Source: an uncultured Lentisphaeria bacterium (GTDB taxonomy: Bacteria > Verrucomicrobiota > Lentisphaeria > JABSQK01 > JAJFLO01). From it: 64,000 nt of DNA. A model generated the notes under the pieces. The model was given only the letters and a program-made list of their open reading frames with translations, ran no database searches and had not been told where the DNA came from. This document shows, piece by piece, positions 5,106 to 41,343 of this stretch. Numbering within the stretch: position 1 is the stretch's first letter; every line of letters starts with the position of its first letter. The stretch lies in the NCBI GenBank assembly GCA_951812855.1, contig OX638337.1:960108-1024107 (forward strand), read 5' to 3'. The translations under genes and the position numbers were made by a program.

Positions 5106-5134
5106 GCAGAATTCTAATCTGATTAATTGCACTT

Positions 5135-7021
5135 ATGAATACCTCTGTTACACCCTACTTAAACAGTTTATGGGCCACCCTGATCGTTGAAGAGTCTGTA
5201 CGATTGGGTAATTGTAACGTGTGTATCTCACCCGGATCAAGAATCACTCCGCTGGCAGCAGCTGCAGCCTTACATCCTAAAATAGAGAGTACCGTTCATT
5301 ATGATGAGCGTGGCACAGCGTTTTTTGCCTTAGGACAGGCAAAAGGATCAGGAAAAGCCAGTATCCTGTTATCAACATCAGGCTCGGCCGTTGCTAATTT
5401 TATGCCTGCGGTTGTTGAGGCAGCTATGGATAGAGTTCCATTGATAATTCTTACCGCTGATCGCCCGCCGGAACTAAGAGACACCGGAGCAAACCAAACG
5501 ATTGATCAAGTTAAATTTTTCTCTAATTACGCCGTATGGCAATTCGACCTCCCCTGTCCGACACTCGATATCCCGCCGGATACACTGTTGAGTATCATTG
5601 ATCATGCCGTGTTTAAGAGCGAAAACATCAGAAAAGGTGTAGTGCATTTAAACTGTCTGTTTCGGGAACCATTTCTACCTGACAACCAGGACCTTACAGA
5701 AAATAAAAAATCATTCTCGTTTGACCAATTTTTGCATAAATCAAATTCTATGTTGAATAAGGAATTAGAAAACACGTCTTTTTCGGAAATCAACTCTCCT
5801 ATAGGAAAAGACTTGCTGTTACGATATACAGCATCAATCAATTCGTGGATAAAAACTGCTGCACCGAAAACAGATTATCGGAGGGCGGCAGGCTACTCAC
5901 CAAAATCCACGACCCAATCCGAGTCAATACTTGCATCTATCAGCAAATCAAAAAAAGGCTTGATAATATTGGGCAATATTTCATCAAAGATTAAATCTGA
6001 TATTTTAATGGAATTTTTGAAAAAACTAAACTGGCCGGTATTTGCAGATATCAATTCTGGAATTCGTCCAGGGTTTGATTCTGACATTGTAATACACTAT
6101 TATGATCAGCTGCTATACGATTCGTGCCAATTAGATTCATTTTCACCGGATTCAATTATTCAAATCGGACATCAAATCGTATCTAAAAGATTATTGAATT
6201 TTCTTCGTAATTGTCACCCCGAAGAATATGTACTCCTGACAGATTCTAATGACCGCATTGACCCTAACCACCGTATAACGCACCAAATCGTTACTGACAT
6301 TTCCGGATATTTGGATTTGATTTCAGCTGAAATAAAGCGTTCCCCAAAATCACCCGTTCTTAAATCAATGAGTAAAAAATCAGTCCTGATTGATCAATTT
6401 TTGATTGACGAATTTGATTTAAACAAACCGTTGACAGAGCCGGGAATCGCCAGACATCTATCAGAGTGTATACCCGCAGATACAGGTATGTTTATTGGAT
6501 CAAGCATGCCTATTCGCTATATGGATATGTTTGCTGCACGGGATGGCAATACCCCTGTTATAACATCTAATCGTGGAGCCAGCGGCATAGATGGTGCAAT
6601 CGCAACCGCTGCCGGATTTGCTAAGAATATTAATAAGCCCATGACTGTTTTAATCGGTGATTTAACCTTACTTCACGACATGAACTCTCTGCCCTTGATA
6701 AAATCACAATTACATCCATTTGTGATTATAGTTCTCAACAATGATGGTGGCGGTATATTTTCCCTGCTTCCTATTTCCCGGCATTTCAAAAACAAAAACC
6801 TGGAGCAGCATTTCTCAAGTACTCATGGACTGAAATTTGACAAAACAGCATCCATGTTTGGGTTTAATTATAGCTCGCCGCCATCACTGAAATCATTTAT
6901 TTCTGAATATTCTCTGGCAATAGAAAACACAACTCCGACTATTATTGAAATATCCAGTAACCGATCTAAAAATGCTGAATGTTTGGAGAACATAAAAATT
7001 CAGATTTTGAAGATTACTTGA
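5135..7021 (+). CDS. menD: 2-succinyl-5-enolpyruvyl-6-hydroxy-3-cyclohexene-1-carboxylate synthase (TPP-dependent)
   Basis: 628-aa ORF with TPP-enzyme N- and C-terminal domains (…ILLSTSGSAVANFMPAVVEAAMDRVPLIILTADRPPELR…, …NRGASGIDGAIATAAGFA…); 30 bp downstream of menF. Confidence 0.85.
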   Translation: MNTSVTPYLNSLWATLIVEESVRLGNCNVCISPGSRITPLAAAAALHPKIESTVHYDERGTAFFALGQAKGSGKASILLSTSGSAVANFMPAVVEAAMDRVPLIILTADRPPELRDTGANQTIDQVKFFSNYAVWQFDLPCPTLDIPPDTLLSIIDHAVFKSENIRKGVVHLNCLFREPFLPDNQDLTENKKSFSFDQFLHKSNSMLNKELENTSFSEINSPIGKDLLLRYTASINSWIKTAAPKTDYRRAAGYSPKSTTQSESILASISKSKKGLIILGNISSKIKSDILMEFLKKLNWPVFADINSGIRPGFDSDIVIHYYDQLLYDSCQLDSFSPDSIIQIGHQIVSKRLLNFLRNCHPEEYVLLTDSNDRIDPNHRITHQIVTDISGYLDLISAEIKRSPKSPVLKSMSKKSVLIDQFLIDEFDLNKPLTEPGIARHLSECIPADTGMFIGSSMPIRYMDMFAARDGNTPVITSNRGASGIDGAIATAAGFAKNINKPMTVLIGDLTLLHDMNSLPLIKSQLHPFVIIVLNNDGGGIFSLLPISRHFKNKNLEQHFSSTHGLKFDKTASMFGFNYSSPPSLKSFISEYSLAIENTTPTIIEISSNRSKNAECLENIKIQILKIT

Positions 7022-14046: not shown

Positions 14047-14212
14047 TATTATTTTGGGCATTCCCGACCCGGAATAAATCCTGGAATTAAATAACGCAGA
14101 AATTTGGCAATGTATCATTCCCGATATCGTGAATAACTGTGATTTACTTTAGTTTTAGAATCAGCATATCCTTTCTACTGACACATCGAATAGAAACAGC
14201 CAATATGCAATT

Positions 14213-14701
14213 ATGAGTACAACACATAATTTTCATTTTTCAGATTCACGTGATATTGGCACTGTTGACAATGATTCAATCGACCTGGCTGTTACCTCAC
14301 CACCCGACCCTGTGATGGAAATGTGGGATGACCTTTTTGTTACTCTTAATCCAGATATTAGCGATGTACTTTCAGATTTAAACGGCCGGTTAGCCTTTAG
14401 TAAAATGCATCATGAATTAGATAAAGTCTGGAGAGAATTGGATCGGGTCGTGAAACCAGGCGGATTTGTATGCATAAATATCGGTGACGCAACCTGAACA
14501 ATCGGTAATAATTTCAGCCTGTATTCCAACCATTCCAGCATCCTTATGTCAATGACATCACTCTCATTTTCGTTACTGCCGTTAATATTATGGAGAAAAT
14601 CGACAAATTCACCAACGAAATTTATGGGCTCGGGGCTGCTCCCGCCAGGGGCCTGTATAACACTTGAACATGGATACATATTAATCTTCAGAAAAAATTA
14701 A
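14213..14701 (+). pseudogene. DNA (N4/N6-adenine/cytosine) methyltransferase remnant with in-frame TGA and missing C-terminal SAM-binding region
   Basis: Frame continues through TGA at 14495-14497: …SIDLAVTSPPDP…VVKPGGFVCINIGDAT(TGA)TIGNNFSLYSNHSS…FMGSGLLPPGACITLEHGYILIFRKN(TAA); resembles N-terminal half of PF01555-type MTases (DPPY-like motif degraded to SPPD); no downstream FxGSG motif found. Confidence 0.5.
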
Positions 14702-15364
14702 AATATAATAGCCGGCACCATTGTTTTCCTGTTATGACACGACAGGGGCAGGAGATACTCATTAAGTACATTGAAACGATTCAGATCAGTGATAACGGCA
14801 GAATTAATGTGGACTACACACCATTTGAATTAAATAATAAGTATGCGGAAACAGAAGAATCAGTTAAACACAAATCACAAATTTTAGAGAACCGGCAATT
14901 ATCATTATTCCAGATCTATTCTCGGAGAATCTCAATAATTATTAATAAGCAGGTGTCGTCATATGTTCTGGGTCGTCGTTGCAGTATTTGGATGTATCTT
15001 TTTTATCGTAATTAATGCGTTCGTGTTTAATCCGCCGGAATCATTGCTCAAGTCTATACTTGAATGGAAAGAAAAATCAGTAGATGATGATCCTGGAACT
15101 GAAGACAGTAAAGAATAAAGTAAACAATACGTGATCTAAGAATCAAAACTTAAAACGGTAACACAGATTGATATGCCTCATGAACTCATTTTCAATCAAT
15201 CACATAAAAACCGAAATCAATGGTCGATATTTTATGAAACGATCTCTTCGGTGGACTTAAAAATTGATAATCGTAACAGGACAGTGTAAAATTAAATCTG
15301 ATAACTATTGAAAATCCGCTTTTTCAGAACAGGCTCCCGTTAAATCCTAATAATATAAAAAATT

Positions 15365-21919: not shown

Positions 21920-23548
21920 TTAGCATAATGCCTTATCAACAATGTCCTGTGCTTCGTTTAACAATTGTTTTAAGTGATCATCACCAATAAAACTTTCTGC
22001 ATAAATCTTGTAAACATCCTCGGTACCGGAAGGTCGTGCCGCAAACCAGCCGTTTTCAGTGGCGACTTTAACTCCGCCGATCGGCACAGCATTGCCGGGA
22101 GCATTACTTAGTTTTTGGAGAATTTTTTCACCTGCTAATGTGTTTGCTGTTATTTGGTTCGGGGAAAGATTTTTTAGCCTGTTTTTCTGTTCAGAATTAG
22201 CTGCTGCGTCGATCCGCCGATAGACCGGATCACCAAATTTCTCTGTAAGTTCTTTATAATGTTCACCGGGGTCCTTTCCTGTTTTGGCCATAATTTCGGC
22301 TGCGAGTAAATCGAGAATAATTCCATCCTTGTCTGTTGTCCATGCGGTACCGTCAAATCGGAGGAACGATGCCCCGGCGCTTTCCTCCCCGCCAAATCCA
22401 TAGGTCCCTGTCCGGAGACCCTGGACAAACCATTTAAAGCCGACGGGTACCTCTAATAACCTCTGACCGAATGAATCGGCGACCCGGTCAATCATGCTGC
22501 TGCTGACCAGGGTCTTTCCGATTGCTGCATCAGGCTTCCATCCCGGACGATTTGTGAAAAGGTAATGAATGGCTGCTGCGAGATAGTGATTCGGATTCAT
22601 CAAACCGACACTCTTAGTCACGATTCCATGGCGATCGCTGTCAGGATCGTTGCCAAAGGCAATATCATAATTTTCTTTCATAGCAATCAGCCCGGCCATA
22701 GCGTAGGGAGAGGAACAGTCCATCCGAATTTTTCCGTCTTTGTCAACCGTCATAAATTTGAATGTTGGATCGATATCTTTGTTGACGATATCAATATTAA
22801 GACCATATCGGTCTGCGATAGGCTGCCAATACTGCAGTGATGCACCCCCCATGGGATCAACCCCTATATTTAATCCTGCGGATTTAATTGCATCCATGTC
22901 GATGACATTCTCGAGGTCGTTTACAAACGGTTTAATATAGTCGTGGGCATGGGTAGAATCCGCAGTTAAGGCCTGTTCTAAAGATAATTTACGGACATCA
23001 TGATTTGAATTATTCATCAACGAGTTTGCCCGATCTTCAATCCATCCGGTGATTGTGGTATTTGCCGGGCCGCCATCGGGTGGGTTGTATTTAAATCCAC
23101 CATCTTCAGGAGGATTATGAGATGGTGTAATAACGATACCATCCGCATCTGCTTTCTTCGCTGATTTATTATGTGTTAAAATCGCATGTGAAACAACTGG
23201 AGTTGGTGTATACCCATTATCCTTTTGTATATACACATCGACGGTGTTGGCAGCCAGCACCTCTATTGCTGTATTGAATGCCGGGGTTGAAAGTGCGTGT
23301 GTATCTTTTCCGATGTACAGCGGACCTTTAATTGCATTGGTATCGCGGTAGTCACAAATTGCCTGAGTGATCGCCTGAATATGACGTTCATTAAAACTGC
23401 CTGCATTCGACGATCCGCGATGACCCGAGGTACCAAAGGCAACAGGTTGAAGACGATCCACCTTTTCATAATAAGTATCTACTAAATGTGCGATGTCAGC
23501 GATCAATTCAGTGGGAACCGGTTTTCCGGCTAAAGGATGTAATGACAT
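21920..23548 (-). CDS. pgm: Phosphoglucomutase (alpha-D-glucose phosphate-specific)
   Basis: 542-aa ORF; phosphoserine-loop motif …[10 protein letters not shown]…, metal-binding …GVDPMGGAS…, sugar-binding …[10 protein letters not shown]…. Confidence 0.9.
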
Positions 23549-24121
23549 GGATTTTGTCTCCTGTAACGTTATTCAATGATGACTACAGTCAGGTATTGTA
23601 ATACTTGAAACAGATCTTCAGGTTCCGGGATGAGAAAATCAAACATGAATGTATACCGATTATTATTTAAATCCATTGTGTCTGTATCACAATGTTTTTA
23701 CGTACTTTCCGAGTAAAAAACCAGCATAAAATTCAGGTTAAAATGCTATAAAGTAAAATTAATGGTACCATATTTTATGAGGTGTAAAGGATACGGTGCG
23801 GGATATCCGAAATAAATCTGTATTGATAATAAGGCGTTACTGTCATGATACGGAGCTATCCCTCAAATGGCGATTTTACGTTTTTCATAATTGACAAGAA
23901 GTTGCGGTCTAAATTTCGTTTCATTTTCGAGATAATGCAGTTCCGTAATCACTCTTGTAGAACGGAATTCTTCTGGTTTACTTAAACATTCGAGAAAATG
24001 AACAGCACTGCCCCATTGTGCAACATGTTGAGGCTCTGCTGAAAGTGACACATTTTCATCCCATTTTATATCCAGCGAATAGCTGACACAGGTTGATTTC
24101 GAAATTGTTATAAGTTCTGCT

Positions 24122-24487
24122 AATACTGGTATATATAAACGAATCCCTGCCCTGGCCAACGCTGCCGGGTTCACCTTCAGCACAATGCCACGGCTTAAAT
24201 ACCTAAAAAAGAAATGCACAGTGAGGTCGCCCAGGCATTACCATAGACGATGACGTACCACTAATATGGCAGAAAACATCAATAAACAATTAAAGGAACG
24301 AACACGCATCGCATCACTTTTCCCAAACGAAGCATCACTGCTCAGATTGGCAAGTGCCATTTTGATCAAAATCAGCGACCGGCGGACGCTGGAAAACGTA
24401 CCTGAAAATGGATCATCAATGACCTGCGATTATCAAACTGCAGAAAAAAATTTGCATTACCGCCATTTTTTAATAATTGTGTACTAA
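24122..24487 (+). mobile_element. IS256 (Mutator)-family transposase 3' remnant with in-frame TGA
   Basis: Frame translates …SPRHYHRR(TGA)RTTNMAENINKQLKERTRIASLFPNEASLLRLASAILIKISD…, matching the conserved C-terminal block of IS256-family transposases (…TTNxIExxNxxLRxxxKxxxxFPNExSxxRLxxAxL…); N-terminal/catalytic part not found; 5' boundary approximate. Confidence 0.5.
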
Positions 24488-24603
24488 TTTTGCTGTTTAT
24501 AAGTGATTTACTCATGTTTGTGTGTAGTGTAAAAGCTTTCGTTTTATACACAATAAATATTTGATAATGAACAATGCGTGAGTTATATGAGGAGAACGAC
24601 TAA

Positions 24604-26079
<1,476 letters not shown>

Positions 26080-26143
26080 GCATACTTTTACACACTGATT
26101 ACAGTTGCAATTGTACTGAATAACATTTAATCACCGAGAAAAA

Positions 26144-27922
26144 ATGCATCCATTCAGAACACATACATGCGGGGAACTATGCAAAGACCATGTCGGCGAG
26201 TCCGTTCGTCTTTCCGGCTGGGTTCATCGCGTCAGAGATCATGGAGGCGTCATCTTTGTTGATCTTCGTGACCACTATGGAATTACCCAGATTGTCATTG
26301 ATCCGGAAAAGGAAATATATCAGGATTTACATCATTGGCGTGTCGAGTCAGTGGTAACGTTTACGGGTAAAATCGTCCTTCGTGATGAGAAAACGGTCAA
26401 TTCTAAAATACCAACCGGCCACATCGAGCTTGCCGCAGATGAAATGGATATGCAAAGTAAAGCCGATTTATTACCGTTTCCCGTGGCAGATGAAGCACCG
26501 TGTCCGGAGTCAACCCGATTATCCTACCGTTTTCTGGATTTACGCAGAGAAGATCTTCATCAAAATATTATTCTCCGCTCACAAATTATTGACAGTATTC
26601 GTAAACGTATGGTTAAGTCAGGCTACAATGAATTGCAAACACCGATTCTGACATCGAGTTCACCAGAAGGTGCACGTGATTTTCTTGTTCCCAGTCGGTT
26701 ACATCCCGGAAAATTTTATGCATTGCCCCAGGCACCGCAGCAGTTTAAACAGTTGCTTATGGTTTCTGGTTTCGATAAATATTTTCAAATTGCACCCTGC
26801 TTCCGAGATGAAGATTCAAGAGCCGATCGGTCTCCGGGTGAATTTTATCAACTTGATTTGGAAAGGTCATTTGCAACTCAGGATGACATTTTTGCAGATG
26901 TTGAGTCTGTGTTATCCGGCCTTTTTAACGAATTTTCAGATGACAGTATTGATGATGCACCATTTATACGTATTCCCTACAAACAGGCAATTTTAGAGTT
27001 TGGCAACGATAAGCCGGACTTAACGAACCCTTTACGACTGATTGACGTAACAGATGAATTTAGAGATTCTGAATTTAATGCATTTGCCAACGTCGTTAAA
27101 AAAGGCGGGGCGGTGCGTGCAATTAGTGTTAAAGGTATTGTTGATCAATCACGAAAATTCTTCGATGATATGATCGAATTTGCTCAGTCCGTTGGAGCAA
27201 AAGGACTTGCCTACATAGGTTGGAAAGATGGAAATGAGCGTAGTCCAATTGCCAAATTTTTAACTGAAGAAGCATTGGAAACATTAAAAGTTAAAGGAAA
27301 AATTGATGATACTGATGTCATGTTTTTTATATGTGATAAGATAGAGAAGGTATCCGATATCGGTGCTGCTGTTATAAAGGAACTGGCTGACCGTTTGGAT
27401 TTACGTGAAAAGAATGCGTATCGATTTTGCTGGATTGTTGATTATCCAATGTTTGAGCTCAATGAACAAACTCGGAAAATAGAATTCTCGCATAATCCAT
27501 TTTCAATGCCGCAAGGAGAAATGGATTCATTAAAAAACAACGATCCTCTTGATGTGTCAGCCTATCAATATGACCTCGTTTGCAATGGAGTTGAGCTATC
27601 CAGTGGTGCGATTCGAAATCACAAACCGGATATCATGTATAAAGCATTCGGTATTGCCGGATATACACGAGATGAAGTCAATGACAAATTCTCAGGTCTG
27701 ATTCGGGCATTTAAATTGGGTGCACCCCCACATGGCGGTATTGCACCGGGTATTGACCGCATTATTATGCTTCTTACAAAATCACCCAATATTCGTGAAG
27801 TTATTGCATTTCCAATGAATCAACAGGCTCAAGATCTCATGATGAATGCACCTTCATCAGTAAAACCGCGGCAACTTAAAGAACTTCACCTTGAAGTAAA
27901 ACTTCCGAAAAAGAAACAATAA
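26144..27922 (+). CDS. aspS: Aspartate--tRNA ligase
   Basis: 592-aa ORF; N-terminal OB anticodon-binding domain (…VRLSGWVHRVRDHGGVIFVDLRD…), class II motifs (…FYALPQAPQQFKQLLMVSGFDKYFQIAPCFRDED…, …GGIAPGIDRIIMLL…). Confidence 0.9.
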   Translation: MHPFRTHTCGELCKDHVGESVRLSGWVHRVRDHGGVIFVDLRDHYGITQIVIDPEKEIYQDLHHWRVESVVTFTGKIVLRDEKTVNSKIPTGHIELAADEMDMQSKADLLPFPVADEAPCPESTRLSYRFLDLRREDLHQNIILRSQIIDSIRKRMVKSGYNELQTPILTSSSPEGARDFLVPSRLHPGKFYALPQAPQQFKQLLMVSGFDKYFQIAPCFRDEDSRADRSPGEFYQLDLERSFATQDDIFADVESVLSGLFNEFSDDSIDDAPFIRIPYKQAILEFGNDKPDLTNPLRLIDVTDEFRDSEFNAFANVVKKGGAVRAISVKGIVDQSRKFFDDMIEFAQSVGAKGLAYIGWKDGNERSPIAKFLTEEALETLKVKGKIDDTDVMFFICDKIEKVSDIGAAVIKELADRLDLREKNAYRFCWIVDYPMFELNEQTRKIEFSHNPFSMPQGEMDSLKNNDPLDVSAYQYDLVCNGVELSSGAIRNHKPDIMYKAFGIAGYTRDEVNDKFSGLIRAFKLGAPPHGGIAPGIDRIIMLLTKSPNIREVIAFPMNQQAQDLMMNAPSSVKPRQLKELHLEVKLPKKKQ

Positions 27923-28014
27923 GGTTATTTGTTTTCTGGAGGTGAAATATTTTCGTTATTATTCTTAATACCCGCCTAATATGGTATATAAGAACGAATC
28001 TTTATTAATCGATT

Positions 28015-28218
28015 TTATTTATACTCGAGAATGGTTGCACCATCGGTAAATCCCCCGCCAAAACTGCAGAGACCGATATCATTGTAACCGTCCATATCTG
28101 CCATAATATCATTAAGGGCAAGTGGTATGGTATTGGATGAGGTATTTCCAGGATGCTCAATATTACAAAAAACTTTCTCATTATCAATATTTAATCCTGT
28201 TTGGGTTCCAATTGTCAT
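28015..28218 (-). pseudogene. C-terminal fragment of a FabH-like 3-oxoacyl-ACP synthase III / thiolase-fold condensing enzyme
   Basis: 67-codon frame …GLNIDNEKVFCNIEHPGNTSSNTIPLALNDIMADMDGYNDIGLCSFGGGFTDGATILEYK matches FabH C-terminus pattern (GNTSxxSIPLAL … FGGGxTWGA); in-frame TGA two codons upstream of first Met; no upstream body of gene found. Confidence 0.35.
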
Positions 28219-28697
28219 GGATTGTCACACAATTGTACACGGATTTATTAAATTAGTTTAAATATAAGGGAGTCAATATGAATACACCTCTCATCTTTGA
28301 ATGATCGCAAGAAGACTCGAATATGCTTTTTATGTTTATCAGCCAAGTTTTATTTTCCATGGTATTTGTTAGTGGGGTAAGCTTTGGTTTTCGTATCGGT
28401 TTGTTATTAAGCACATTGTATTGTCAGATTCATGGCAGCTGTTTGAATTACCGGTGTTCACAGGGCAGGTTACAGCCTTGACGTATCTGTTCACCTTAAT
28501 ATACAGGATGCACTTTCAGGAAATAGCCGGGGCAGTTTCTTTTAACTAAATGGCAGCCTTGTATTTTACCTCACTTTAATTATTTATGGTAAACTGACGG
28601 GCTGTAACACCGGGCTTAATGGCCTTGTATTCCTCTGAAAAATCAGGCGGGCGGCATATTTTTTGACATCATTTTAAAATTTATAAAGATTAACGCC

Positions 28698-30908
28698 ATG
28701 GATATTACACATTTACGTTTGGGAACTTTAGTCATCTCTGTATTTGTCGGGGTATGGCTTTTTATTGTTTCACACTATATCCGAATTCCTGCAATTGTTC
28801 TTTTACTGATTGGAGGCGTAATACTGGGGCCGGAGGGGTTGGCCATAATCGACCCTGAATCTCTTGGACAGAGTCTTCGGTTAATCATATCTCTGTGTGT
28901 TGCCATTATACTTTTTGAAGGAGGTTTATCCTTAAAGCCCGAGGGATTTAAGAAGGCACCAAGAGTTATTTGGAAGCTTTTAACAATCGGTGTCGGAATC
29001 ACCTGGCTTGGAACTGCTGCGTTAATTCATTTTCTTCTGAATTTTCCTATACCAGTCTCATTATTATGCGGCAGTCTGGTTATTGTTACGGGTCCAACAG
29101 TTATCGCGCCATTGCTTAATCGAATCAGTGTTAAGGATAAATTATATCACATCTTGCATTGGGAAGGTGTTTTAATTGATCCAATTGGTGTTTTTATTGC
29201 AATTTTGTGTTTCGAATGGTTAAGCATTGAGGGAAGTTTTATAACGCATATTGGACATTTAAGCTATCGCTTGTTAGTTGGCATTGTGATAGGTATCATT
29301 GGCGGTCTAATTTTAACGTTTTTACTGGTTAAAAAAATAATACCGGAACAACAAGTGAATATTTTGGTATTTGCCACAGCGTTATTTTTATTTGGTATCT
29401 CTGAATCAGTTGTTCACGAGGCCGGTATTCTTACCGTGGTTATAGCAGGACTTGTTATGGGCTGGACGTCTCCTCCGCAGCTTAAACATATCAAAAAATT
29501 TAAATCTGAGTTAACCGAAATTTCGATTGCACTGGTTTTCATACTTCTTGCCGCCAATCTTGAACTGCATCAATTTTCAAAATTCGGCTGGAGAGTTGTA
29601 TTGGTTATTTGTGGTGTGCTGTTTATTATTCGTCCACTTAGCATCATGCTGTGTACAAAAGGCTCTCAACTTAGGATGAATGAAAAATTGTTTCTGTCCT
29701 GGATTGCCCCAAGGGGGGTTGTCGCAGGGTCGATGGCGTCCCTCTTCGGGTTAAGGTTATCAATGCAAGGTCATCCAAACGCAATATTTTTGGAAACATT
29801 TACATTCAGTATCATCGCAACTACAATTGTTTTTCAAGGATTAACTGCTGGTATTGTGGCACACTGGTTAAAGGTTGAAGAACCCGAAAAGAAGGGATGG
29901 CTTATCATCGGTGCTCACCTTTTCTCAAGAAAAATTGCGTCGTTCATCATGGAAACGACCAATGGCGTATGTATTTTGATTGATACCAATGAAGATGCGG
30001 TCAGAGAGGCACAAAATGAGGGATTTATCGTGATCCAGGGCAATGCGTTGTCGACGGATATTCTTCCTCTTGATCAGATGTCTTCAATCGGCAATCTCCT
30101 CGCACTGACTGATAACCGGGATTTAAACCAGTTGATTTGCGAGAAATGGTCAGAGATGATTGACCGTAATCATTTATACAGGTGGTCGTCACGATCCATT
30201 CAGGATGAAAACGAAATTGGTGGAATGGGAAAGCCGTTATGGCCGATGATCCCAAAACCCTCTCAACTGTCATATGATTTAAAAAACATGAATGTCAATT
30301 GTCGGCAATTAAATGAAAACGAATCGTTTGTAAAGTCATCCGGAAATGAGAGGATGATAACCTTTACTGACAGCACACTTCATTTTTCAGACAGTGTTCC
30401 TGAAGGAGTTGAAGCACCTGATGTTTTTGTGTTGGAACGACTGTCGCTGAATTTACTTGGATTAATTAAACGTAATCAAATCTTTTTTCTTGACTATGAC
30501 GATTATGAAGAATTGTTAAATGTAATACTTAATGAAATTGAACAGATTTATCCGGATATTGTTAATGATGCACTCAAATCAAGTTTGGTGCATCGCGAAG
30601 TCAAATTTCCCTCAATACTGGCAAATAGAATTGCAGTACCGCACACCCGATCTTCCTCATTAAATGAGTCAATTTGTGTAGTTGTACAGTTAAAACAGGA
30701 GATAAATTTACCGCCGCCTAACGCCGGGACTGTCAGACTGTTATTTCTATTATTGACACCCGAAGATAAACCGGAACAACATTTAAGACTTCTTGCAGAA
30801 ATTGCCAAAATTGCATCGTCCCCGGACTTGGTTGATTCACTTATAAATGTGAATTCGATTGATGATTTAATACAAAATTTTAAGGGTATTAATGCAAAAA
30901 TCGAGTGA
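28698..30908 (+). CDS. NhaP/CPA1-type cation:proton antiporter with central RCK-like and C-terminal PTS EIIA (type 2, PtsN-like) domains
   Basis: 736-aa ORF; ~12 TM segments in first 400 aa, Rossmann-like middle region (…WLIIGAHLFSRKIASFIMETTNGVCILIDTNEDAV…), C-terminal EIIA-2 domain with AVPH active-site motif (…ILANRIAVPHTRSSSL…LLFLLLTPED…). Confidence 0.8.
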   Translation: MDITHLRLGTLVISVFVGVWLFIVSHYIRIPAIVLLLIGGVILGPEGLAIIDPESLGQSLRLIISLCVAIILFEGGLSLKPEGFKKAPRVIWKLLTIGVGITWLGTAALIHFLLNFPIPVSLLCGSLVIVTGPTVIAPLLNRISVKDKLYHILHWEGVLIDPIGVFIAILCFEWLSIEGSFITHIGHLSYRLLVGIVIGIIGGLILTFLLVKKIIPEQQVNILVFATALFLFGISESVVHEAGILTVVIAGLVMGWTSPPQLKHIKKFKSELTEISIALVFILLAANLELHQFSKFGWRVVLVICGVLFIIRPLSIMLCTKGSQLRMNEKLFLSWIAPRGVVAGSMASLFGLRLSMQGHPNAIFLETFTFSIIATTIVFQGLTAGIVAHWLKVEEPEKKGWLIIGAHLFSRKIASFIMETTNGVCILIDTNEDAVREAQNEGFIVIQGNALSTDILPLDQMSSIGNLLALTDNRDLNQLICEKWSEMIDRNHLYRWSSRSIQDENEIGGMGKPLWPMIPKPSQLSYDLKNMNVNCRQLNENESFVKSSGNERMITFTDSTLHFSDSVPEGVEAPDVFVLERLSLNLLGLIKRNQIFFLDYDDYEELLNVILNEIEQIYPDIVNDALKSSLVHREVKFPSILANRIAVPHTRSSSLNESICVVVQLKQEINLPPPNAGTVRLLFLLLTPEDKPEQHLRLLAEIAKIASSPDLVDSLINVNSIDDLIQNFKGINAKIE

Positions 30909-31151
30909 TGAATTAAAAAAAGCACATAAGGAAGAGAAATGAAGTTTGCTGCTAATGCTGCAGCGAAGCGGGCAGGTGTCAGGAGTTGTTATTGCTGTTT
31001 TTACCATACATATGAAGATTCGATTGATAAGATGGATTTTAAAAAATCAGCACGGGTGGTCGCCGGTTTAGAACATGTTATTAAGAATTTAGTCGGCATA
31101 AGGAAATGAGAAATAACGGATAATAATAAGAAAGTAAATATAGAAAATTGT

Positions 31152-32715
31152 TTAGCTTCGATTAAGCACAATTGCAGTTCGGGCTGGAAGATATACGGTG
31201 AAGAAATGCTTTTGATTTTTACCGTTATTTTTACATTCTCGGGTATGGTAACGCTGATTTTCATCCAGTCTGCCCTGGCCGTTAAAGGTTTTTGCATCAC
31301 TGTCTAATAGAAGTTTGTAAGTCCCGGGATCAGTATAAACCGGTAAATGATTAACGGGGATTAAAGTTAAAGATAAAAATAAGTTGAGCTCGTTGGAAAC
31401 AAATTAATTTATCCAGGATGTGGTTGCAGATTAAATCTCCCCTGTCATCAGGATCTAGAAGATTAAACGTGTCGGCTATTTTTATCATTTCCTTGTCAAA
31501 TTCTGCTAAATGATAATAAATCAGATTGGGATCATCACGCAGGCTCCACTGGCGTCTTGCATATTGGAACGACCAATCATTTCCTTCTCTCGGGAAATCA
31601 ATCCACTCAGGATGACCAAACTCATTTCCCATAAAATTCAAATACCCTTCACCACCGATGGCCAACGTAATCAGACGGATCATTTTATGTAAGGCGACAC
31701 CTCTTTCAACAGAGATATTGTTATGGTCAAGATGCATATTGTGGTACATATCTTCGGCAATGGTCAGGGCATCGGGTTTGAGTTTGTGAATCAGTTTATT
31801 TGCCAATGTCAGGCAGGTCAGGGCATCGTTATCCACCTGATCATTGAAATAATCATCATAAGTTGTAAATGTTTTATCAAGACCATGGTCGGTGTACAGC
31901 ATGCTGGTGACGCCATCAAAACGAAATCCATCTAAATGAAATTCATCCCGCCAATATCGACAGTTTGATAGCAGAAAATGTATCACTTCACCTTTTTGAC
32001 AGTCAAAACATCGTGAGTCCCAGGCGTCATAATAGCCGCGGCTGCCGGTATGAAAATAAAGATGATCAGTACCGTCAAAAAAGCTTAATTATTCTACTTC
32101 ATTGCGAACGACATGGGAATGAACCAGATCCATGATGACAGCAACGCCTTGACCGTGTGCGGCATCGATAAGTGCTTTTAATTCATCCGGCGTCCCGAAT
32201 CTGGAAGATGCTGTAGAAAAATTAGACACATGATAACCAAATGATCCGTAGTAAGGATGTTCCTGTATTGCCATCAATTGGATGGTATTGTAGCCGCAAT
32301 CAACGATTCTCGGGAGAATATTATTTTTGAATTCGGTGTATGATCCGACACGGGTATTCTCCAATGCCATACCAATATGTGTCTCGTAAATGATTGGTGG
32401 TTTCGTTGATCGTTTAAATCAGGTATCTGCCGGATCAATTTTAATCCTTATAGTTTCGCCTTCCGACCATATTGGGTTTTCTGAATTTTCTGGCAGGGAA
32501 AACATTTTCACCTGGAAATAGCCAACCTCCAACATTGGCAATGAAATTTTGTAATAATTTTTACGAACTGGTTTCATCGGGAAATCAAACCAGTCGTCAT
32601 TCTTTTTGGCTTCTCCGAATTCCACCTGATTAATAATATCCTGCCGGTTGTTCCTGCCGTGGCTCAGTGTACTTCTGATCCGGGCGGTCTCTTGACAGGG
32701 TTGATTTAATGTCAA
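31152..32715 (-). pseudogene. glgB: Eukaryote-type (GH13) 1,4-alpha-glucan branching enzyme gene, decayed: four in-frame stops, one frameshift, internal deletion, truncated N-terminus
   Basis: Three track ORFs (32419..32715, 32089..32370, 31351..31986) lie in the same frame, separated by in-frame TGA (32419-21) and TAA (32089-91); conserved GBE motifs present (…IYETHIGMA…, …[23 protein letters not shown]…, …LDGFRFDGVTSMLY…, …HKMIRLIT…GGEGYLNFMGNEFGHPEW…) but ~95 aa including the catalytic ESHDQ region absent between TIAED and MYHNM; C-terminal domain (…VYTDPGTYKLLLDSDAKTFNGQGRLDE…FFTVYLPARTAIVL) continues in another frame after TAA 31351-53/TGA 31330-32. Confidence 0.65.
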
Positions 32716-32818
32716 TAAAAACAGAATAATATCACCACTACAGGATATTACTTCTGATCCGGGCTTTGGTGTTGTGTCAGCATTTTCTTTAGTATCGTTA
32801 ATACGAAATGTTATAAAA

Positions 32819-33721
32819 TTATATAACCGATCCTATTGAGAAAAGAATACTGTAAAGGATCAACAATTTACCGGTGTTCGCCAGTGATTCGTTCAGTGCA
32901 GATCCGTCTGTGTGGGTAAATATCGTCTTCACTACAGGTATAGCCGGTAATAAAATCAAACTGCTCATGATACTGTATTTGCAGGGTTTGCAGGCAATAA
33001 AAATGTAGACAGGAATCAAACAGGCCAATACGATGCATACTAAAAATTCCCATTTTGCAAATGTTTTTCCAAATATCACGGCAAGGGTTCTCTTCCCAGA
33101 TAATCGATCCTCATCAACATCACGAAGGTTATTGACGGCTAACATCGCCATTGATATTAACCCCGGGCCAAAACCGATGATGATAATATTGATGTCCAAC
33201 GTTAATGTCTGGACGTAGTATGTCCCGGCCAGAGCGACAGGTCCGAAAAAAATAAGTACAAAGATATCTCCCAATCCATTGTAACCCAAAGGATACGGGC
33301 CGCCGGTATACAGTATGCCTGATGTAATTGAAATAACTGTTATGATTAATATTACCCACCCGGCACGCTTAAATAGCAGCAGACCGAGTAATCCCGTGAT
33401 TATCATTAGTAAAATATAAGAAATTTTCATTGTCTGTGGTTTAATGAGACCAGCCTGAGTAACCCGGGTCGGGCCGGTTCGTTTATCCGAGTCCGAACCA
33501 TTTATAAAATCATAATAGTCATTCGCAAAATTTGTGGCAATCTGAATTGAAATAGCAATGAACAGGCAAATCGCTGCTGATAGCCAATGATATAATCCTG
33601 TCTTGTATGCTATTGCGGTTCCGATTAACACGGGTGCAATTCCTGCAAACAATGTTTTGGGTCTGATGGCCATAAGCCATATTTCAAATTTAGATAAATT
33701 CTGGTTCTGACACTTTAACAA
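32819..33721 (-). CDS. menA: 1,4-dihydroxy-2-naphthoate polyprenyltransferase (UbiA superfamily)
   Basis: 300-aa ORF; 8-9 TM helices; UbiA-family Asp-rich motifs (…NFANDYYDFINGSDSDKRTGP…, …NLRDVDEDRLSGKRTLA…). Confidence 0.85.
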   Translation of the reverse strand: MLKCQNQNLSKFEIWLMAIRPKTLFAGIAPVLIGTAIAYKTGLYHWLSAAICLFIAISIQIATNFANDYYDFINGSDSDKRTGPTRVTQAGLIKPQTMKISYILLMIITGLLGLLLFKRAGWVILIITVISITSGILYTGGPYPLGYNGLGDIFVLIFFGPVALAGTYYVQTLTLDINIIIIGFGPGLISMAMLAVNNLRDVDEDRLSGKRTLAVIFGKTFAKWEFLVCIVLACLIPVYIFIACKPCKYSIMSSLILLPAIPVVKTIFTHTDGSALNESLANTGKLLILYSILFSIGSVI

Positions 33722-34329
33722 AATCTTAACTCCCTAATTTTTTAAAAATCCAGATACGTCTTGCAAAATTCTGTAACGATCCTTCTAAAAATCTGTCTGA
33801 CAAGATATTATAATCTATGTTGAGTTTTAAGTATAATGAGATCGATGAAAAAGTATTTTGGGTCGAACATCATACCATTTTGAAGGAATCAAATAGACTC
33901 TTTAATGATGGTGTAACGAGCAGAAAATTTAACTATGGCAGATACTCATTACAGGGGGATATGGGAAATTGGGATTTGAACTGGCAAAGGCATTTTCTAA
34001 CTCGTAAATCTTGCTTAGCGTTTAACATGAAACCCGGGTTTCAGTGCGGAGCACGGGATAGAAGTATCGATGGGATTAAGATGAATCAGCTCACACGTCC
34101 TGTATTTAAACTCTGATAACGAAATATTTTCCCGGTGACAGTCATATCACATTTTTTTAAGATACACAGATTTTAATCGATATTAGTTATTGCCAGCTAT
34201 ATTGATGACAAACAGTCTTAATTCAGCCGATAATGCTGCGGCACTGTCATAGCGTTCATCCGGATCTTTTTTTAATAATTTCTCGAGAATTAATTCTAAA
34301 TCATCTGGAAAATCAAAGTCTGATTCTGA

Positions 34330-35409
34330 TTAAAAATCGAGTAGTTCAACATCGAAGATTAACGTTGCTTTTGGGGGAATACGTGGCGGGGCTCCCCGTT
34401 CACCATAGGCAAGGCGGTGGGGAATTATTAATATGCGTTGTTCTCCCTTTTTCATATCTAAAAATGCTTCGTCCCATCCTTTGATGACACGACCAGCTCC
34501 AACATTGAATTCAAATGGTAAATTTCGATCTCGTGAACTGTCAAATGTTTTTCCATTGGCAAGAGTGCCGGTGTAGTGGGCTTTTACTTTTGTTCCTCTT
34601 TTGGGTTTATTACCTGAGCCTTCTTTTAATATAACATATCGTAATCCGGATGCAGTTTTGATTTGGTTCGGCCATTTTTTATTGATAATTGCATTGTCCT
34701 TTTCCTGTACCGCTTTTTCTTTCTCCGCCTGTTGATTTTTAGCCTTCTTCAGTCGGTTCTTAAAAGTATCATTGTCTGATTTAAACTTGTTTGCATCGTC
34801 ACCTACTCTGACAATGGTAATCGAATTTATCTTATCTTTATTCTGAATTTTATTAACGATATCCTGACCGTTTATTACTTCCCCAAAGACTGAATGTTTG
34901 TTGTCTAACCAGGGAGTTGCCTTGTGAGTGATAAAAAATTGACTGCCATTTGTATCCTGTCCGGAATTTGCCATAGACAGTATTCCCGGGCCGCTATGTC
35001 TAAGAGTTGGGTCAAACTCGTCAGAAAATTTATAACCGGGACCTCCAGTACCTCTGCTGAGTGGACAACCGCCCTGAATCATAAAATCGGGAATGACCCG
35101 ATGAAAGACTAATCCGTCATAAAACTTGGTTCCCTTTGGTTTATTCGATTCAATCGTACCCTCAGCTAATCCGATAAAATTCATGACTGTCAGTGGAACT
35201 TTGTCATAGTGTAACTTCAGCAGGATTGTTCCTTTTGAAGTATTGATCTTTGCATAGATTCCGTCACTGAGTTTTTTTGAAGACGATTCTCCAGCATAAG
35301 AAAGGAAGTTTATGGTTATTATTAGAATTAAGAGCTGAATAATATTTCTTAAATTATAACGGCATAGGATCATCTTTATTCCATCCTGTTTTGTCTGTTG
35401 CTTTTTCAA
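34330..35409 (-). CDS. Secreted dual-family peptidyl-prolyl cis-trans isomerase (cyclophilin domain fused to FKBP domain)
   Basis: 359-aa ORF; N-terminal signal/TM segment; cyclophilin motifs (…[15 protein letters not shown]…, …[18 protein letters not shown]…), C-terminal FKBP domain (…[14 protein letters not shown]…[29 protein letters not shown]…[10 protein letters not shown]). Confidence 0.8.
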
Positions 35410-35767
35410 TGCTCAAAGTTGGTGCTGATACGGTAAAAGTTTTATACGTAAAAAAACAAGGTAACTGTTATGTCTTCCTGTGGCAATGCAATGTCTAAAA
35501 TTTTGCTTTGAATTTGAATTGCTCCTTGATTTGGTGTAAGATGTTAAGTAATAAGATACGTGTGATTTGTGGATTTTTAGATTGGCGTTTTTCAATAACA
35601 TTTTGTTCCATAAATCCGAACATTTATTATTTTCTGATGTCCTGACAAATATCCGTGTGATATATCTAAACTGTTGTCTAAGCAGATGCTGTGTCGCCTA
35701 AAATTGAAATCGTTATTTGTTGGTATATGAATTTGAGCCATAACTATGAAAAAGGAGCAATGATAAT

Positions 35768-36106
35768 ATGGAGAACACAAGCTCAAGTACGGAGAAGTTA
35801 TCTGAAGCCTTAAAAATGCTTGATGATGCAGCGAAAAGCAAAAAAGCTGAGATTCAGGATTTACTGTCTTCCAAATATAAGAATATAAAAGAAACATTTA
35901 CTGGTTTCGATTCTAAAGACTCAGTTGAAGCGTTAAAGAAAAATGCAACTGAAAAGGCATCAAGAGTAGCTGAAATCAGTGAAGATAGAGTTAAAGAGAT
36001 TGCAACTGAAATCGATCAAAATGTCCATAATAATCCCTGGCCGTATATTGGTGGAGCAGCCATATGTTCATTACTCCTCGGCTATATTATGGGGCGCAAA
36101 GATTAA
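35768..36106 (+). CDS. DUF883 (YqjD/ElaB-like) C-tail-anchored membrane protein
   Basis: 112-aa ORF; coiled/charged N-terminal region and single C-terminal TM helix (…WPYIGGAAICSLLLGYIMGRKD), the ElaB/YqjD architecture. Confidence 0.65.
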   Translation: MENTSSSTEKLSEALKMLDDAAKSKKAEIQDLLSSKYKNIKETFTGFDSKDSVEALKKNATEKASRVAEISEDRVKEIATEIDQNVHNNPWPYIGGAAICSLLLGYIMGRKD

Positions 36107-36160
36107 TTTTGCATTACATTCAATCCGGAAGAGTATCAAGACAGATAGTCATAACAAACA

Positions 36161-36550
36161 ATGAATAACATATTCAGTTCGATATTTAGTCGAGTTATAA
36201 GTCCAGTTTTCAAAGCAAGTCGGCAGACGTCTCTTAAATTATTAAAAATTGAAGTGGCCCGATGTCGTATTAATATTGTAAAAAAAGTGCGTCTGGCGTT
36301 TCTTGGCGGTGCAGGAGTCCTTTTCTTATACAGTTTTTTTACAAGTGGTTTTCTAATGTTGGCGGCGACTTGCTTTATCATATTAATGGTAAAATTTGGA
36401 GTGAAAACTGCCGTAATTTTTCTATTTATATCAGGTGCTTTATGTTGTCTAATCCCAATCACCATACTGTCGATAGTCAGCTCAGAAAAAGCCTGGCTAA
36501 AACATACCGATTGTGATTCTATCCTGGACGATGTTTTTTCAGGAAAATAA
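36161..36550 (+). CDS. Small inner-membrane protein (possibly YqjE-like partner of the preceding gene)
   Basis: 129-aa ORF with two hydrophobic segments; 55 bp downstream of DUF883 gene; family assignment tentative. Confidence 0.4.
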   Translation: MNNIFSSIFSRVISPVFKASRQTSLKLLKIEVARCRINIVKKVRLAFLGGAGVLFLYSFFTSGFLMLAATCFIILMVKFGVKTAVIFLFISGALCCLIPITILSIVSSEKAWLKHTDCDSILDDVFSGK

Positions 36551-36690
36551 TATCCTGTCTTTCACGCAGTGAAAAACCAGATCCTGATGTCTTGCCCGTA
36601 TCCCTGACTCCACTAAAACATGGATATATGAAAAGCTGATATGTGGATACAGACCAGTGTTCTGTCCTCAGTATTTTATTAAAAGGATGA

Positions 36691-37449
36691 TTGAATCTGA
36701 ATCGTATGAAAAATTGGTACAAAGACGCCTTTACTGAAGATTATATTCATATTTATCAACACCGCAACCAAACAGAAGCGACAATTCTAATCGACCGGTT
36801 ATTGAAATTTTTGAATTTACCAGGCGATTCATTGTGTTTAGATTTATGCTGTGGATTTGGTCGTCATTTATCATATTTATTAGATCAGGGGATAAATACA
36901 TATGGATTAGATTTATCACAGCCACTACTGGAAAATGCGGTTGAAATAAGGCAATTATCCGGTCGTGTCATTCTTGGAGATATGAGACACATTCCCTTTA
37001 GTAAGTCATTTGATTTTGTTTTCTCCTTTTTCTCCAGTTTTGGTTATTTTCACAGGGATTCAGAAAATATACAAGTTTTACAGGAGATTAATCGAGTGTT
37101 AAAACCAAAGGGAAGATTCTTAATCGATTATCTTAATGCTGAGCATGTTAAAGATAATTTGAGAGAACATGACCTTCGTTGCTATGATAATTTTACTGTA
37201 AAGCAGAAGCGCTGGATAAATTCAGATTTAAATACGGTAGAAAAAGAGTTAATCATTGAAGATGTCAAGGGTGAACGATCTTATTTTGAGAGTGTTAAAC
37301 TCTATGATCTGGTAGATTTCAGGCAACTTTGTTCAGCCTCGAATTTGAAAATCACCCATGAATTTGGAGATGCCATTGGAAAACCGTTTGACATCGGATC
37401 AAGTCGTTTGATCATGGTGGGGGGAAAAATTGACAGTCACCTTTCATAA
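36691..37449 (+). CDS. Class I SAM-dependent methyltransferase (translationally coupled to bshC)
   Basis: 252-aa ORF; SAM-binding motif …LDLCCGFGRHLSYLL…GLDLS…; stop overlaps bshC start by 20 nt. Confidence 0.75.
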   Translation: MNLNRMKNWYKDAFTEDYIHIYQHRNQTEATILIDRLLKFLNLPGDSLCLDLCCGFGRHLSYLLDQGINTYGLDLSQPLLENAVEIRQLSGRVILGDMRHIPFSKSFDFVFSFFSSFGYFHRDSENIQVLQEINRVLKPKGRFLIDYLNAEHVKDNLREHDLRCYDNFTVKQKRWINSDLNTVEKELIIEDVKGERSYFESVKLYDLVDFRQLCSASNLKITHEFGDAIGKPFDIGSSRLIMVGGKIDSHLS

Positions 37450-38995
37450 TTTCAATTTGGTAGATGATAACCTTTATAATGCCAAAATAACGTCCGCTTT
37501 TCTGGAAACAGATCCTTATTCATCAGATTCATTGTCCAGGAATCATCAATACGCGTCATCACGGTCTGACATCGACCGCGAATTTTTGTCGGAGACTTTT
37601 TCTGAATATAATAATGTCATCGGTAATGACTCCACGGCACTTTATAATTGCAGTCGAATAAGAAATGCAGGTTCAATGGCAGTGGTTACAGGCCAGCAGG
37701 CCGGGATGCTGACCGGTCCATTATACACGATATATAAGATTATTACGGCTGTTAATTTTGCAAAGCATTGTGAACATAAGTTTAAGACACCTGTCATCCC
37801 GGTTTTTTGGAACGCAACCGAAGATCATGATTTAAGTGAAGTCGAATCATTTCATTATCCTGGCAAGAAGTGGTCTGCCACTTTTTCACAAAACGGAGTT
37901 GCAGCACAATTTTTAAACGTAAATCCGGCATGTTCGAATCTTGTTTACAATTTCCTGGATTCAATCTCAGAAATAAATCATAAAGATGAAATTACATCTA
38001 TACTGACAAATGAGTTTGAAAAATACGGAGAATTTTCATCGTCAGTGACAGCCCGGTTATTTAAGGGGACGGGTCTGGTCATTATTGAACCAAAATTATT
38101 GCGTAAAAAGTCAACTCCATTTTTTCAAAAGTGCATCAGCCATTGTCATGATATCAGAAATGGATTGGAGCAGGCCGGTGTTCTCTTACAGCAAAATAAA
38201 ATTAAGCCTGCATTTCAGGTGTCCGGGGATTCAACAGGACTTTTTTATATAACAGATGACGGGATTCGATATCAAATAAAAAATAGGAAAAATGACTTTT
38301 TTATTAATAACAAATGGGTTTCGGAATCTTCAGCGTTACAACTTATTGCCGAGTCTTCTTCAAATTTTTCTACCGGTGCATACCTGAGACCCGTTTTGCA
38401 GTCAAAAATTATTCCTGCTCTGGCATATATAGCAGGTCCAGCGGAATATAGGTATCATTTACAACTGAAAAATATATTTCACATGTTTGATGTTAAAATG
38501 CCTGTAATTCTACCCAGAAATCATGCAACCATTTTGACAAAAAAAGAATTGAAAGTTGCGAATAAACTGGGTTTGAAAATTCATGATTATTTTGAAGGTC
38601 CTCAAAAATTTTATCATCAGCACAAGTTATATAAAAAAGGAAGAGACAGTTTTAAGAATGCTGAACAGGCCTTGATAGACATCGCTGAGAATTTGGCTCA
38701 GGACATACCGGATTTAGTCAATGAGAATGTATTAAATCAGTTTAAATCAAACTTGGGTATTCAATTAGACAAACTTGAAAAACGCGTTGCGAAAGAAGTC
38801 TTGAGACGCGAGGGAATTGACAATGCCAGAATTGATCGGTTTTATAATTGTATTTTCCCGAAAAAATCTATGCAGGAACGATGGATTAATATCTTTTATT
38901 TTATTGAACAAAATGGTTTATCCATTATCAGTGATTTGTTGAAAATTATCGATCCTTTAGAACGGCGACATTATGTTGTTTATACAGACCATTAG
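37430..38995 (+). CDS. bshC: Bacillithiol biosynthesis cysteine-adding enzyme BshC
   Basis: 521-aa ORF; conserved BshC block …AVVTGQQAGMLTGPLYTIYKIITAVNFAK…PVIPVFWNATEDHDL… and …AYIAGPAEYRY…; followed by bshB and bshA. Confidence 0.8.
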   Translation: MTVTFHNFNLVDDNLYNAKITSAFLETDPYSSDSLSRNHQYASSRSDIDREFLSETFSEYNNVIGNDSTALYNCSRIRNAGSMAVVTGQQAGMLTGPLYTIYKIITAVNFAKHCEHKFKTPVIPVFWNATEDHDLSEVESFHYPGKKWSATFSQNGVAAQFLNVNPACSNLVYNFLDSISEINHKDEITSILTNEFEKYGEFSSSVTARLFKGTGLVIIEPKLLRKKSTPFFQKCISHCHDIRNGLEQAGVLLQQNKIKPAFQVSGDSTGLFYITDDGIRYQIKNRKNDFFINNKWVSESSALQLIAESSSNFSTGAYLRPVLQSKIIPALAYIAGPAEYRYHLQLKNIFHMFDVKMPVILPRNHATILTKKELKVANKLGLKIHDYFEGPQKFYHQHKLYKKGRDSFKNAEQALIDIAENLAQDIPDLVNENVLNQFKSNLGIQLDKLEKRVAKEVLRREGIDNARIDRFYNCIFPKKSMQERWINIFYFIEQNGLSIISDLLKIIDPLERRHYVVYTDH

Positions 38996-41025: not shown

Positions 41026-41343
41026 TCAGTTATGCCTGAACGTGAACATCGTATTATTTAGCACCTCTTTAATCGCAGATGCCGGTTTAGATAAATCAAT
41101 TGGTTTCATGACGCAGTCATATACACCCGCTTCCTTCGCTTTTTCAGGGCTGGTACTGCCACTGAAACCCGAAGCAAGTATAACGGGGATATTCGGATTA
41201 ATTTCCAGAATATGTTTGACCAGATCAGTTCCAGTCATTCCGGGCATTGTCTGGTCGGTAAAGATTAGATCAAATCGTTCTGAATTCGATTTAATTTTCC
41301 GAGAAGCAGAGATTATATTTTTATGTATTTGAGGGAATTTCCA
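41026..41343 (-). pseudogene. Response-regulator receiver domain remnant (C-terminal two-thirds only)
   Basis: Minus-strand frame reads (stop)…KIKSNSERFDLIFTDQTMPGMTGTDLVKHILEINPNIPVILASGF…AKEAGVYDCVMKPIDL…; contains phospho-acceptor Asp region and K of receiver fold but lacks the N-terminal acidic pocket and any start codon upstream. Confidence 0.5.

Follow-up and report, generated by a model that had tools for sequence, protein, structure and literature searches.

The window analysed here, a stretch of 64,000 nucleotides, comes from a HiFi metagenome assembly (ENA ERZ18545485). On its minus strand, positions 31152 to 32783 hold a short piece of a glycogen debranching enzyme (GDE) gene, followed by the interrupted remains of a glycogen branching enzyme (BE) gene. 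In the direction of reading, the features are:

32422..32783, minus strand: GDE 5' remnant of about 121 codons, with the original ATG at 32783-32781 (tblastn, exhaustive HMMER)
32419..32421, minus strand: TGA at the junction of the GDE and BE remnants, where GDE homology ends and BE homology begins; breakpoint left by the loss of at least 4.9 kb
32092..32418, minus strand: BE codons 156-265, where the GH13 catalytic barrel begins, with region I, DLVHSH (blastn, 78.8% nucleotide identity to L001:7568-9565 in a segment that also spans the next fragment; codon alignment; human GBE1 alignment)
32089..32091, minus strand: nonsense codon TAA in place of glycine codon 266, which is GGA in the homologue, two base changes away (codon alignment)
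31747..32088, minus strand: BE codons 267-379, regions II and III (PDB search, tblastn, codon alignment)
31746..31761, minus strand: scar of a 255-nt (85-codon) in-frame deletion of codons 380-464; two blastn segments overlap by 15 nt here
31357..31746, minus strand: BE codons 465-594, from the last part of the barrel into the C-terminal domain (tblastn, codon alignment)
31351..31356, minus strand: frameshift near 31354, where 8 nt are deleted (codon alignment: the intact gene reads CCAGCCAGTCATTTAATCAT, the window CCCG--------TTAATCAT)
31152..31352, minus strand: BE from codon 599 onward, the C-terminal all-beta domain, read in the other frame up to TAA 31152-31154 (tblastn, 68% identity; PF02806)

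Three open reading frames (ORFs) of the minus strand, 32419-32715, 32089-32370 and 31351-31986, lie in a common reading frame and are separated by the TGA at 32419-21 and the TAA at 32089-91. An earlier sequence-only reading had joined all three into one BE gene. The shared frame and the assignment of the second and third ORFs to BE hold, whereas the first ORF is the N-terminal remnant of a GDE (tblastn, HMMER). In a PDB search with the stitched BE translation, human GBE1 (5clt/4bzy) was matched with an E-value of about 5e-128 and rice BEI (3AMK) with 1e-123, whereas bacterial GlgB chains reached 5e-43 or weaker. As that reading had proposed, the BE remnant is by sequence similarity a eukaryote-type (GH13_8-like) branching enzyme, nearer to the eukaryote-type BEs than to bacterial GlgB (GH13_9). 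Pfam recognised Alpha-amylase and Alpha-amylase_C (PF02806, E 2e-13) in the stitched translation, in which no match to CBM48 (PF02922) was found. The best database homologue is P0001, an intact protein of 665 aa from GCA_021772675.1, with up to 81% amino acid identity in the best local segment. The intact gene at L001:7568-9565 aligned by blastn in two blocks, the first over 676 positions at the identity given above and the second with 75.9% over 602 positions.

Homology to BE, in both DNA and protein, begins only at 32418, which corresponds to codon 156 of the nearest intact homologue and lies directly 3' of the TGA (blastn, codon alignment). Homologues carry 122-187 residues ahead of this point, and none of the BE N-termini of 120 homologues matches anything upstream of 32418. 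The N-terminal domain had been described as short; the alignments indicate that the BE N-terminus, 155 codons including CBM48, has been lost entirely.

The ORF upstream of the TGA is the 5' end, about 121 codons, of a GDE gene of about 1,430 residues, and not a short BE N-terminus. A genome-contig search with the stitched BE translation and generic patterns (NFMGNEFG and similar) gave 80 BE loci; the source genome and its nearest relative are absent among the matches listed in that search. By tblastx of 32419-32818, the start of a long ORF upstream of BE was matched in at least eight loci among the matches listed for these 80. The matched long ORFs, such as L037:818-5110 (1,430 aa) and L018:4729-9042 (1,437 aa), contain Alpha-amylase, GDE_N and GDE_C domains. 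Residues 11-126 of the L037 and L018 GDEs align by tblastn to window positions 32769-32422, with E-values of 1.6e-23 and 6e-22, respectively. An exhaustive HMMER search of the whole library with the 121-aa version returned 114 proteins (E down to 6e-19). The full-length ones are 1,370-1,480 aa long and are matched at their own residues ~1-125, the best with 33-45% identity, and GDE_N and GDE_C were present in all four of the matched proteins that were checked. Pfam assigned no family to the 98-aa upstream ORF, and a word-indexed homologue search with the 121-aa GDE remnant matched only itself.

In a tblastn comparison of full-length GDE with the whole window, only residues 11-126 were found, plus a weak continuation into the BE barrel. 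The N-terminal domain of about 125 residues is present, and the catalytic modules (GH13-like, GDE_N and GDE_C) are absent. This domain is homologous to that of large bacterial GDE-like proteins (Alpha-amylase, GDE_N PF12439 and GDE_C PF06202, ~1,400-1,480 aa). Such proteins are often encoded upstream of BE, and the remnant likewise precedes BE on one strand, an arrangement shared with L005, L018 and L037. Unlike intact GDE genes, this one has lost over 90% of its length, and with it every catalytic module. In the window strain, a 1-nt deletion near 32767 additionally shifts the frame of the GDE remnant after codon 5.

GDE homology stops at ...DPADT (EPADTCC in the homologues), and the window then continues as BE from codon 156 onward. 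Because the upstream ORF belongs to a different gene and BE homology starts at 32418, the TGA at 32419-21 marks the junction and is not a stop inside BE. It could be a mutated Cys codon (the homologues read ADTCC), or it could have arisen with the creation of the junction itself. Of the two stops that had been thought to break the BE frame, this one lies outside BE homology, whereas the TAA at 32089-91 lies within it and is a true nonsense codon. A single deletion would have joined GDE codon ~126 to BE codon 156, removing both GDE catalytic modules and the BE N-terminus with its CBM48. Its size would be about 4.9 kb if GDE and BE were adjacent, and about 9 kb if the genes for glycogen phosphorylase (glgP) and glycogen synthase (glgA) lay between them.

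The ancestral state would accordingly have been a GDE gene for about 1,430 aa (GH13-like, GDE_N and GDE_C) upstream of a eukaryote-type GH13 BE gene on the same strand. Among the matches listed for the 80 BE loci, a full-length GDE occurs upstream of BE on the same strand in at least eight, and a partial GDE in at least four more. L005 and L018 have the two genes immediately next to each other, 438 and 530 nt apart. The interval is about 4.3-5.1 kb in L006, L008, L010, L023, L027 and L037, and in L037 it holds glgP and glgA. No remnants of glgP or glgA were found in the window by tblastn with queries from L037. A search of L001, the BE locus of the nearest relative, found no GDE adjoining the intact BE, and the genes flanking it differ from those flanking the remnant. 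As the L001 BE has no GDE neighbour, we infer the ancestral adjacency in this lineage from more distant bacteria and from the chimeric scar, rather than observing it directly. On this view, the scar keeps a record of the original order, GDE before BE.

In each of the two paralogous enzymes, the large deletion has its breakpoint a few residues before the GH13 barrel opens with its first beta-strand (window 32400-32440, minus strand; residue ~126 of the L037 GDE; residue 156 of P0001), and the fusion keeps the GDE and BE pieces in one frame. Because of these positions just ahead of strand beta-1 of both barrels and the preserved frame, the deletion may have been guided by paralogy and may first have yielded a chimeric enzyme. 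This suggestion is speculative.

Within the BE part, alignment of the read-through translation to BEs places GH13 regions I (DLVHSH), II (GFRFDGVTS, with the nucleophile Asp) and III (TIAED, with the acid/base Glu) in register, and all three are still encoded. Region IV (ESHDQ) is absent and falls in the 85-codon deletion. The column of the TAA at 32089-91 is occupied by Gly in all of 112 homologues, and this codon appears to be the sole true nonsense change at the locus. At the in-frame deletion, TIAED is directly followed by MYHNM, as had been noticed from the sequence alone; the loss amounts to exactly 85 residues against each of the 112 homologues, and not to the roughly 95 codons first estimated. 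E[ST]HD lies in this gap in 110 of the 112. In human GBE1 numbering, the gap corresponds by alignment to residues 415-497, which include the His-Asp of region IV; the nucleophile Asp and Glu412 (TIAED) lie outside the gap and remain. In the intact homologue, the deleted segment is flanked by the short direct repeats ATCGCCGAAGACATG and ATTGGTGAGGACATG, coding for IAEDM and IGEDM. Replication slippage or illegitimate recombination between these repeats would explain the deletion.

The C-terminal all-beta domain is still recognisable, but it lies out of frame with the barrel, behind the 8-nt frameshift. It is found by tblastn in the other reading frame, and its last ~65 codons run to the terminal TAA. 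The stops TAA 31351-53 and TGA 31330-32, which had been listed as further interruptions beside a frameshift, are indeed in the old frame. Because that frame reads them only after the 8-nt deletion, they are by-products of this one deletion and not independent lesions. No insertion occurs anywhere in the codon alignment to the intact gene, and all length changes are deletions. Bacterial pseudogene decay shows a deletional bias, and the deletions-only pattern fits it.

Compared with eukaryote-type GH13 BEs (CAZy GH13_8; GBE1, PDB 4BZY/5CLT; rice BEI, 3AMK) and with their homologues in bacteria (about 665-690 aa), the remnant shares regions I-III and the C-terminal beta-domain. It differs from them in having no N-terminal/CBM48 part and no region IV (ESHDQ), and in carrying one nonsense codon and one frameshift. 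No active enzyme can be encoded by the BE remnant.

The gene fusion and all the BE lesions recur in three further HiFi contigs, L083, L084 and L085. Together with the window, these represent four contigs and two strains, so the decay proposed from the sequence alone is real. At this locus, L084 and L085 do not differ from the window. L083, a contig of 1,941,460 bp whose name ends in the assemblers' suffix for circular contigs, comes from another strain, which over 2 kb differs by 8 substitutions and 1 indel. In L083, one extra base near 32767 restores an intact ORF of 121 codons, from the ATG at 32783-81 to the junction TGA. The 1-nt deletion near 32767 is an additional, younger frameshift of the window strain, and this step is still polymorphic.

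Comparison of the BE remnant with the intact homologue gave a dN of 0.12 and a dS of 1.63, hence a dN/dS of about 0.07. Near-invariant columns are changed in 5 of 132 cases in the remnant, and the intact P0001 also has 5 changes. As the count is no higher than in this intact protein, the drift of conserved columns alone would not prove inactivation. The low dN/dS together with the few changed columns implies that most of the divergence arose under selection, and the inactivation is accordingly recent. The two strains differ at 9 of 1,650 positions in the remnant (0.55%), at 19 of 3,653 in other non-genic DNA (0.52%) and at 15 of 8,906 in intact genes (0.17%), all of these being small counts. 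The remnant has eight of these substitutions, and five would change an amino acid (5:3, non-synonymous to synonymous, again small counts). One of the five, derived in the window strain, changes His to Tyr at a near-invariant position that is His in at least 98% of homologues. The locus now evolves without constraint, at the non-coding rate, although the strain-difference counts are small. In the intact genes of window positions 22698-36906, 8 non-synonymous and 7 synonymous differences from L083 were counted (menA 4:0, aspS 4:1), which suggests weak purifying selection across the genome.

The terminators of 45 long ORFs in the window are TAA in 23 cases, TGA in 13 and TAG in 9. An alternative genetic code is ruled out by this usage; the code is standard.

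Partial function could persist in several ways: by read-through or recoding of the stops, by a split enzyme assembled from fragments, or by the 121-codon GDE ORF serving as a small glucan-binding protein. The 121-aa ORF of L083, which keeps its ATG and has no internal stop, and the three GH13 regions that are still encoded speak for this idea. They are outweighed by the deletion of region IV, the absence of CBM48 and the displaced frame of the C-terminal domain. In addition, TAA and TGA serve as normal stop codons in this DNA, the window strain carries a frameshift in the 121-aa ORF, and variation between the strains runs at the non-coding rate. A retained function is therefore highly unlikely. 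Less likely again is the single BE gene of the sequence-only reading, with a shortened N-terminal domain, several independent in-frame stops and a loss specific to branching. It would account for the common frame of the three ORFs, the BE identity of the second and third, and the intact pgm. However, 0 of 120 BE homologue N-termini match upstream of 32418, while that stretch matches GDE N-termini at E 1e-23 (tblastn) and in 114 library matches. Moreover, two of the supposed stops are frameshift by-products, and further genes of the window are truncated too. For the first ORF, the single-gene reading is refuted.

Least likely of all is a sequencing or assembly artefact that hides a gene intact in the organism. 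The 1-nt difference near 32767 would suit such an error, as it lies in a short C/G run and varies between contigs. The 255-nt deletion, the 8-nt deletion, the two-base TAA change and the gene fusion are not HiFi error types, and these four lesions are common to four contigs from at least two strains. Window positions 31152-32783 (minus strand) are thus very probably what is left of a glycogen gene cluster that was inactivated recently and no longer functions. The locus is a genuine, well-resolved pseudogene or, more exactly, the chimeric scar of a GDE-BE glycogen cluster.

The proposed order of events begins with the large, gene-fusing deletion. The repeat-mediated in-frame deletion, the small frameshifting deletion and the nonsense change would have come afterwards, and a further step is polymorphic between the strains. 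The locus offers a clean, datable example of the dismantling of a bacterial operon. For annotation, it teaches that three ORFs in the same frame need not be one gene.

Other genes of the window bear on how far this loss extends. At least four more are truncated (FabH, an IS256-type transposase, a DNA methylase and a response regulator), and pgm is complete:

28018-28224, minus strand: C-terminal piece of FabH in a 69-codon open frame (PF08541 positions 28-90 of 90, E 1e-11); it lies in the 775 nt that separate aspS from an NhaP-type antiporter gene
24254-24484, plus strand: tail of an IS256/Mutator transposase, the last ~40 residues (PF00872 positions 334-373 of 379, E 3e-7), in a 1-kb gap between pgm and ilvC
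14159-14494, plus strand: N-terminal piece of a DNA methylase gene (PF01555; the E-value of 9.5e-5 does not reach the curated cut-off)
41029-41343, minus strand: response-regulator receiver that lacks about 38 profile positions at its start (PF00072 positions 39-106 of 111); the gap around it measures 627 nt
21920-23548, minus strand: pgm, intact, 542 aa, with all four PGM domains

The FabH piece is probably another truncated gene remnant, and the transposase tail looks like a degraded insertion sequence. Upstream of ilvC, the relative L086 has other genes. The methylase fragment is followed by two more broken frames in a 1.3-kb gap, and 14159-15012 (plus strand) as a whole may be a fragmented methyltransferase gene. 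Either the receiver gene is truncated, or it is a small gene whose limits were set wrongly.

The intact pgm had been taken as a sign that the loss was specific to glycogen branching. Its completeness was confirmed; the conclusion drawn from it does not follow. Phosphoglucomutase also supplies the synthesis of nucleotide sugars and polysaccharides, and pgm is adjoined by a polysaccharide export cluster of the Wza/Wzc type. Because the enzyme serves nucleotide-sugar synthesis and this cluster lies next to its gene, an intact pgm is uninformative on glycogen. The debranching gene, apparently hit by the same deletion as BE, has also been destroyed and other genes of the window are truncated, so the decay is not specific to branching and fits general genome erosion. 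The remnant may well reflect a genome reduction still in progress, in which glycogen storage is lost.

The host genome is a closed contig of about 1.95 Mb (1,947,381 bp). The best named matches of the aspartyl-tRNA synthetase (AspRS) encoded in the window belong to Lentisphaerota and Victivallales, with 66-71% identity. The nearest relative, GCA_021772675.1 (L086), has an AspRS that is 90% identical, shares the ilvC-aspS synteny and holds the intact 665-aa BE. A second relative, GCA_011087705.1 (L088/L089, JAAHTH010018617.1), also has a 90% identical AspRS and keeps the ilvC-aspS order. The latter assembly (JAAHTH) derives from a metagenome of the sponge Mycale hentscheli (PMC7196800), which hints at a sponge-associated lineage. 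About 78% of the 64-kb window lies in ORFs of at least 120 aa, and eleven gaps measure 0.5-1.9 kb. Scans of the 64 kb found no tRNA genes and no Rfam families.

Host-dependent bacteria tend to lose glycogen metabolism, as Henrissat et al. are cited to have described (2002, Trends Genet 18:437, as cited in PMC7935935). The likeness to the reductive loss ascribed to that work lies in the small closed genome of 1.95 Mb, the gene fragments nearby, the relative in a sponge metagenome and the glycogen genes being lost. It differs from that account in that host dependence is putative here and the comparison covers two genes of the pathway, with the window and its 10-kb flanks as the DNA that was read. 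In contrast, the Chlamydiae of the same PVC superphylum have been reported to keep the glycogen pathway (PMC7935935). It is conceivable, if on balance rather doubtful, that a PVC (Lentisphaerota-like) lineage associated with sponges or invertebrates has lost the whole glycogen pathway early in its genome reduction, with the two co-occurring strains showing successive steps of decay. If true, this would contrast with the Chlamydiae, in which glycogen metabolism is kept through a far deeper reduction. The locus would then be a data point, from a poorly known PVC lineage, for the idea that glycogen storage is lost early as bacteria become host-dependent. It is clearly a case of ordinary gene loss during genome shrinkage and represents no new mechanism or system.

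Elsewhere in the window, the menaquinone genes (ubiE/menG, menF, menD and a UbiA-family, menA-like prenyltransferase gene) and a BshC-like gene seem intact, at 2935-7021 (plus strand), 32819-33721 (minus strand) and 37430-38995 (plus strand). The longest window frame of the BshC-like gene has 521 codons against 512-aa proteins in the gene calls of the large contigs; the choice of start may differ.
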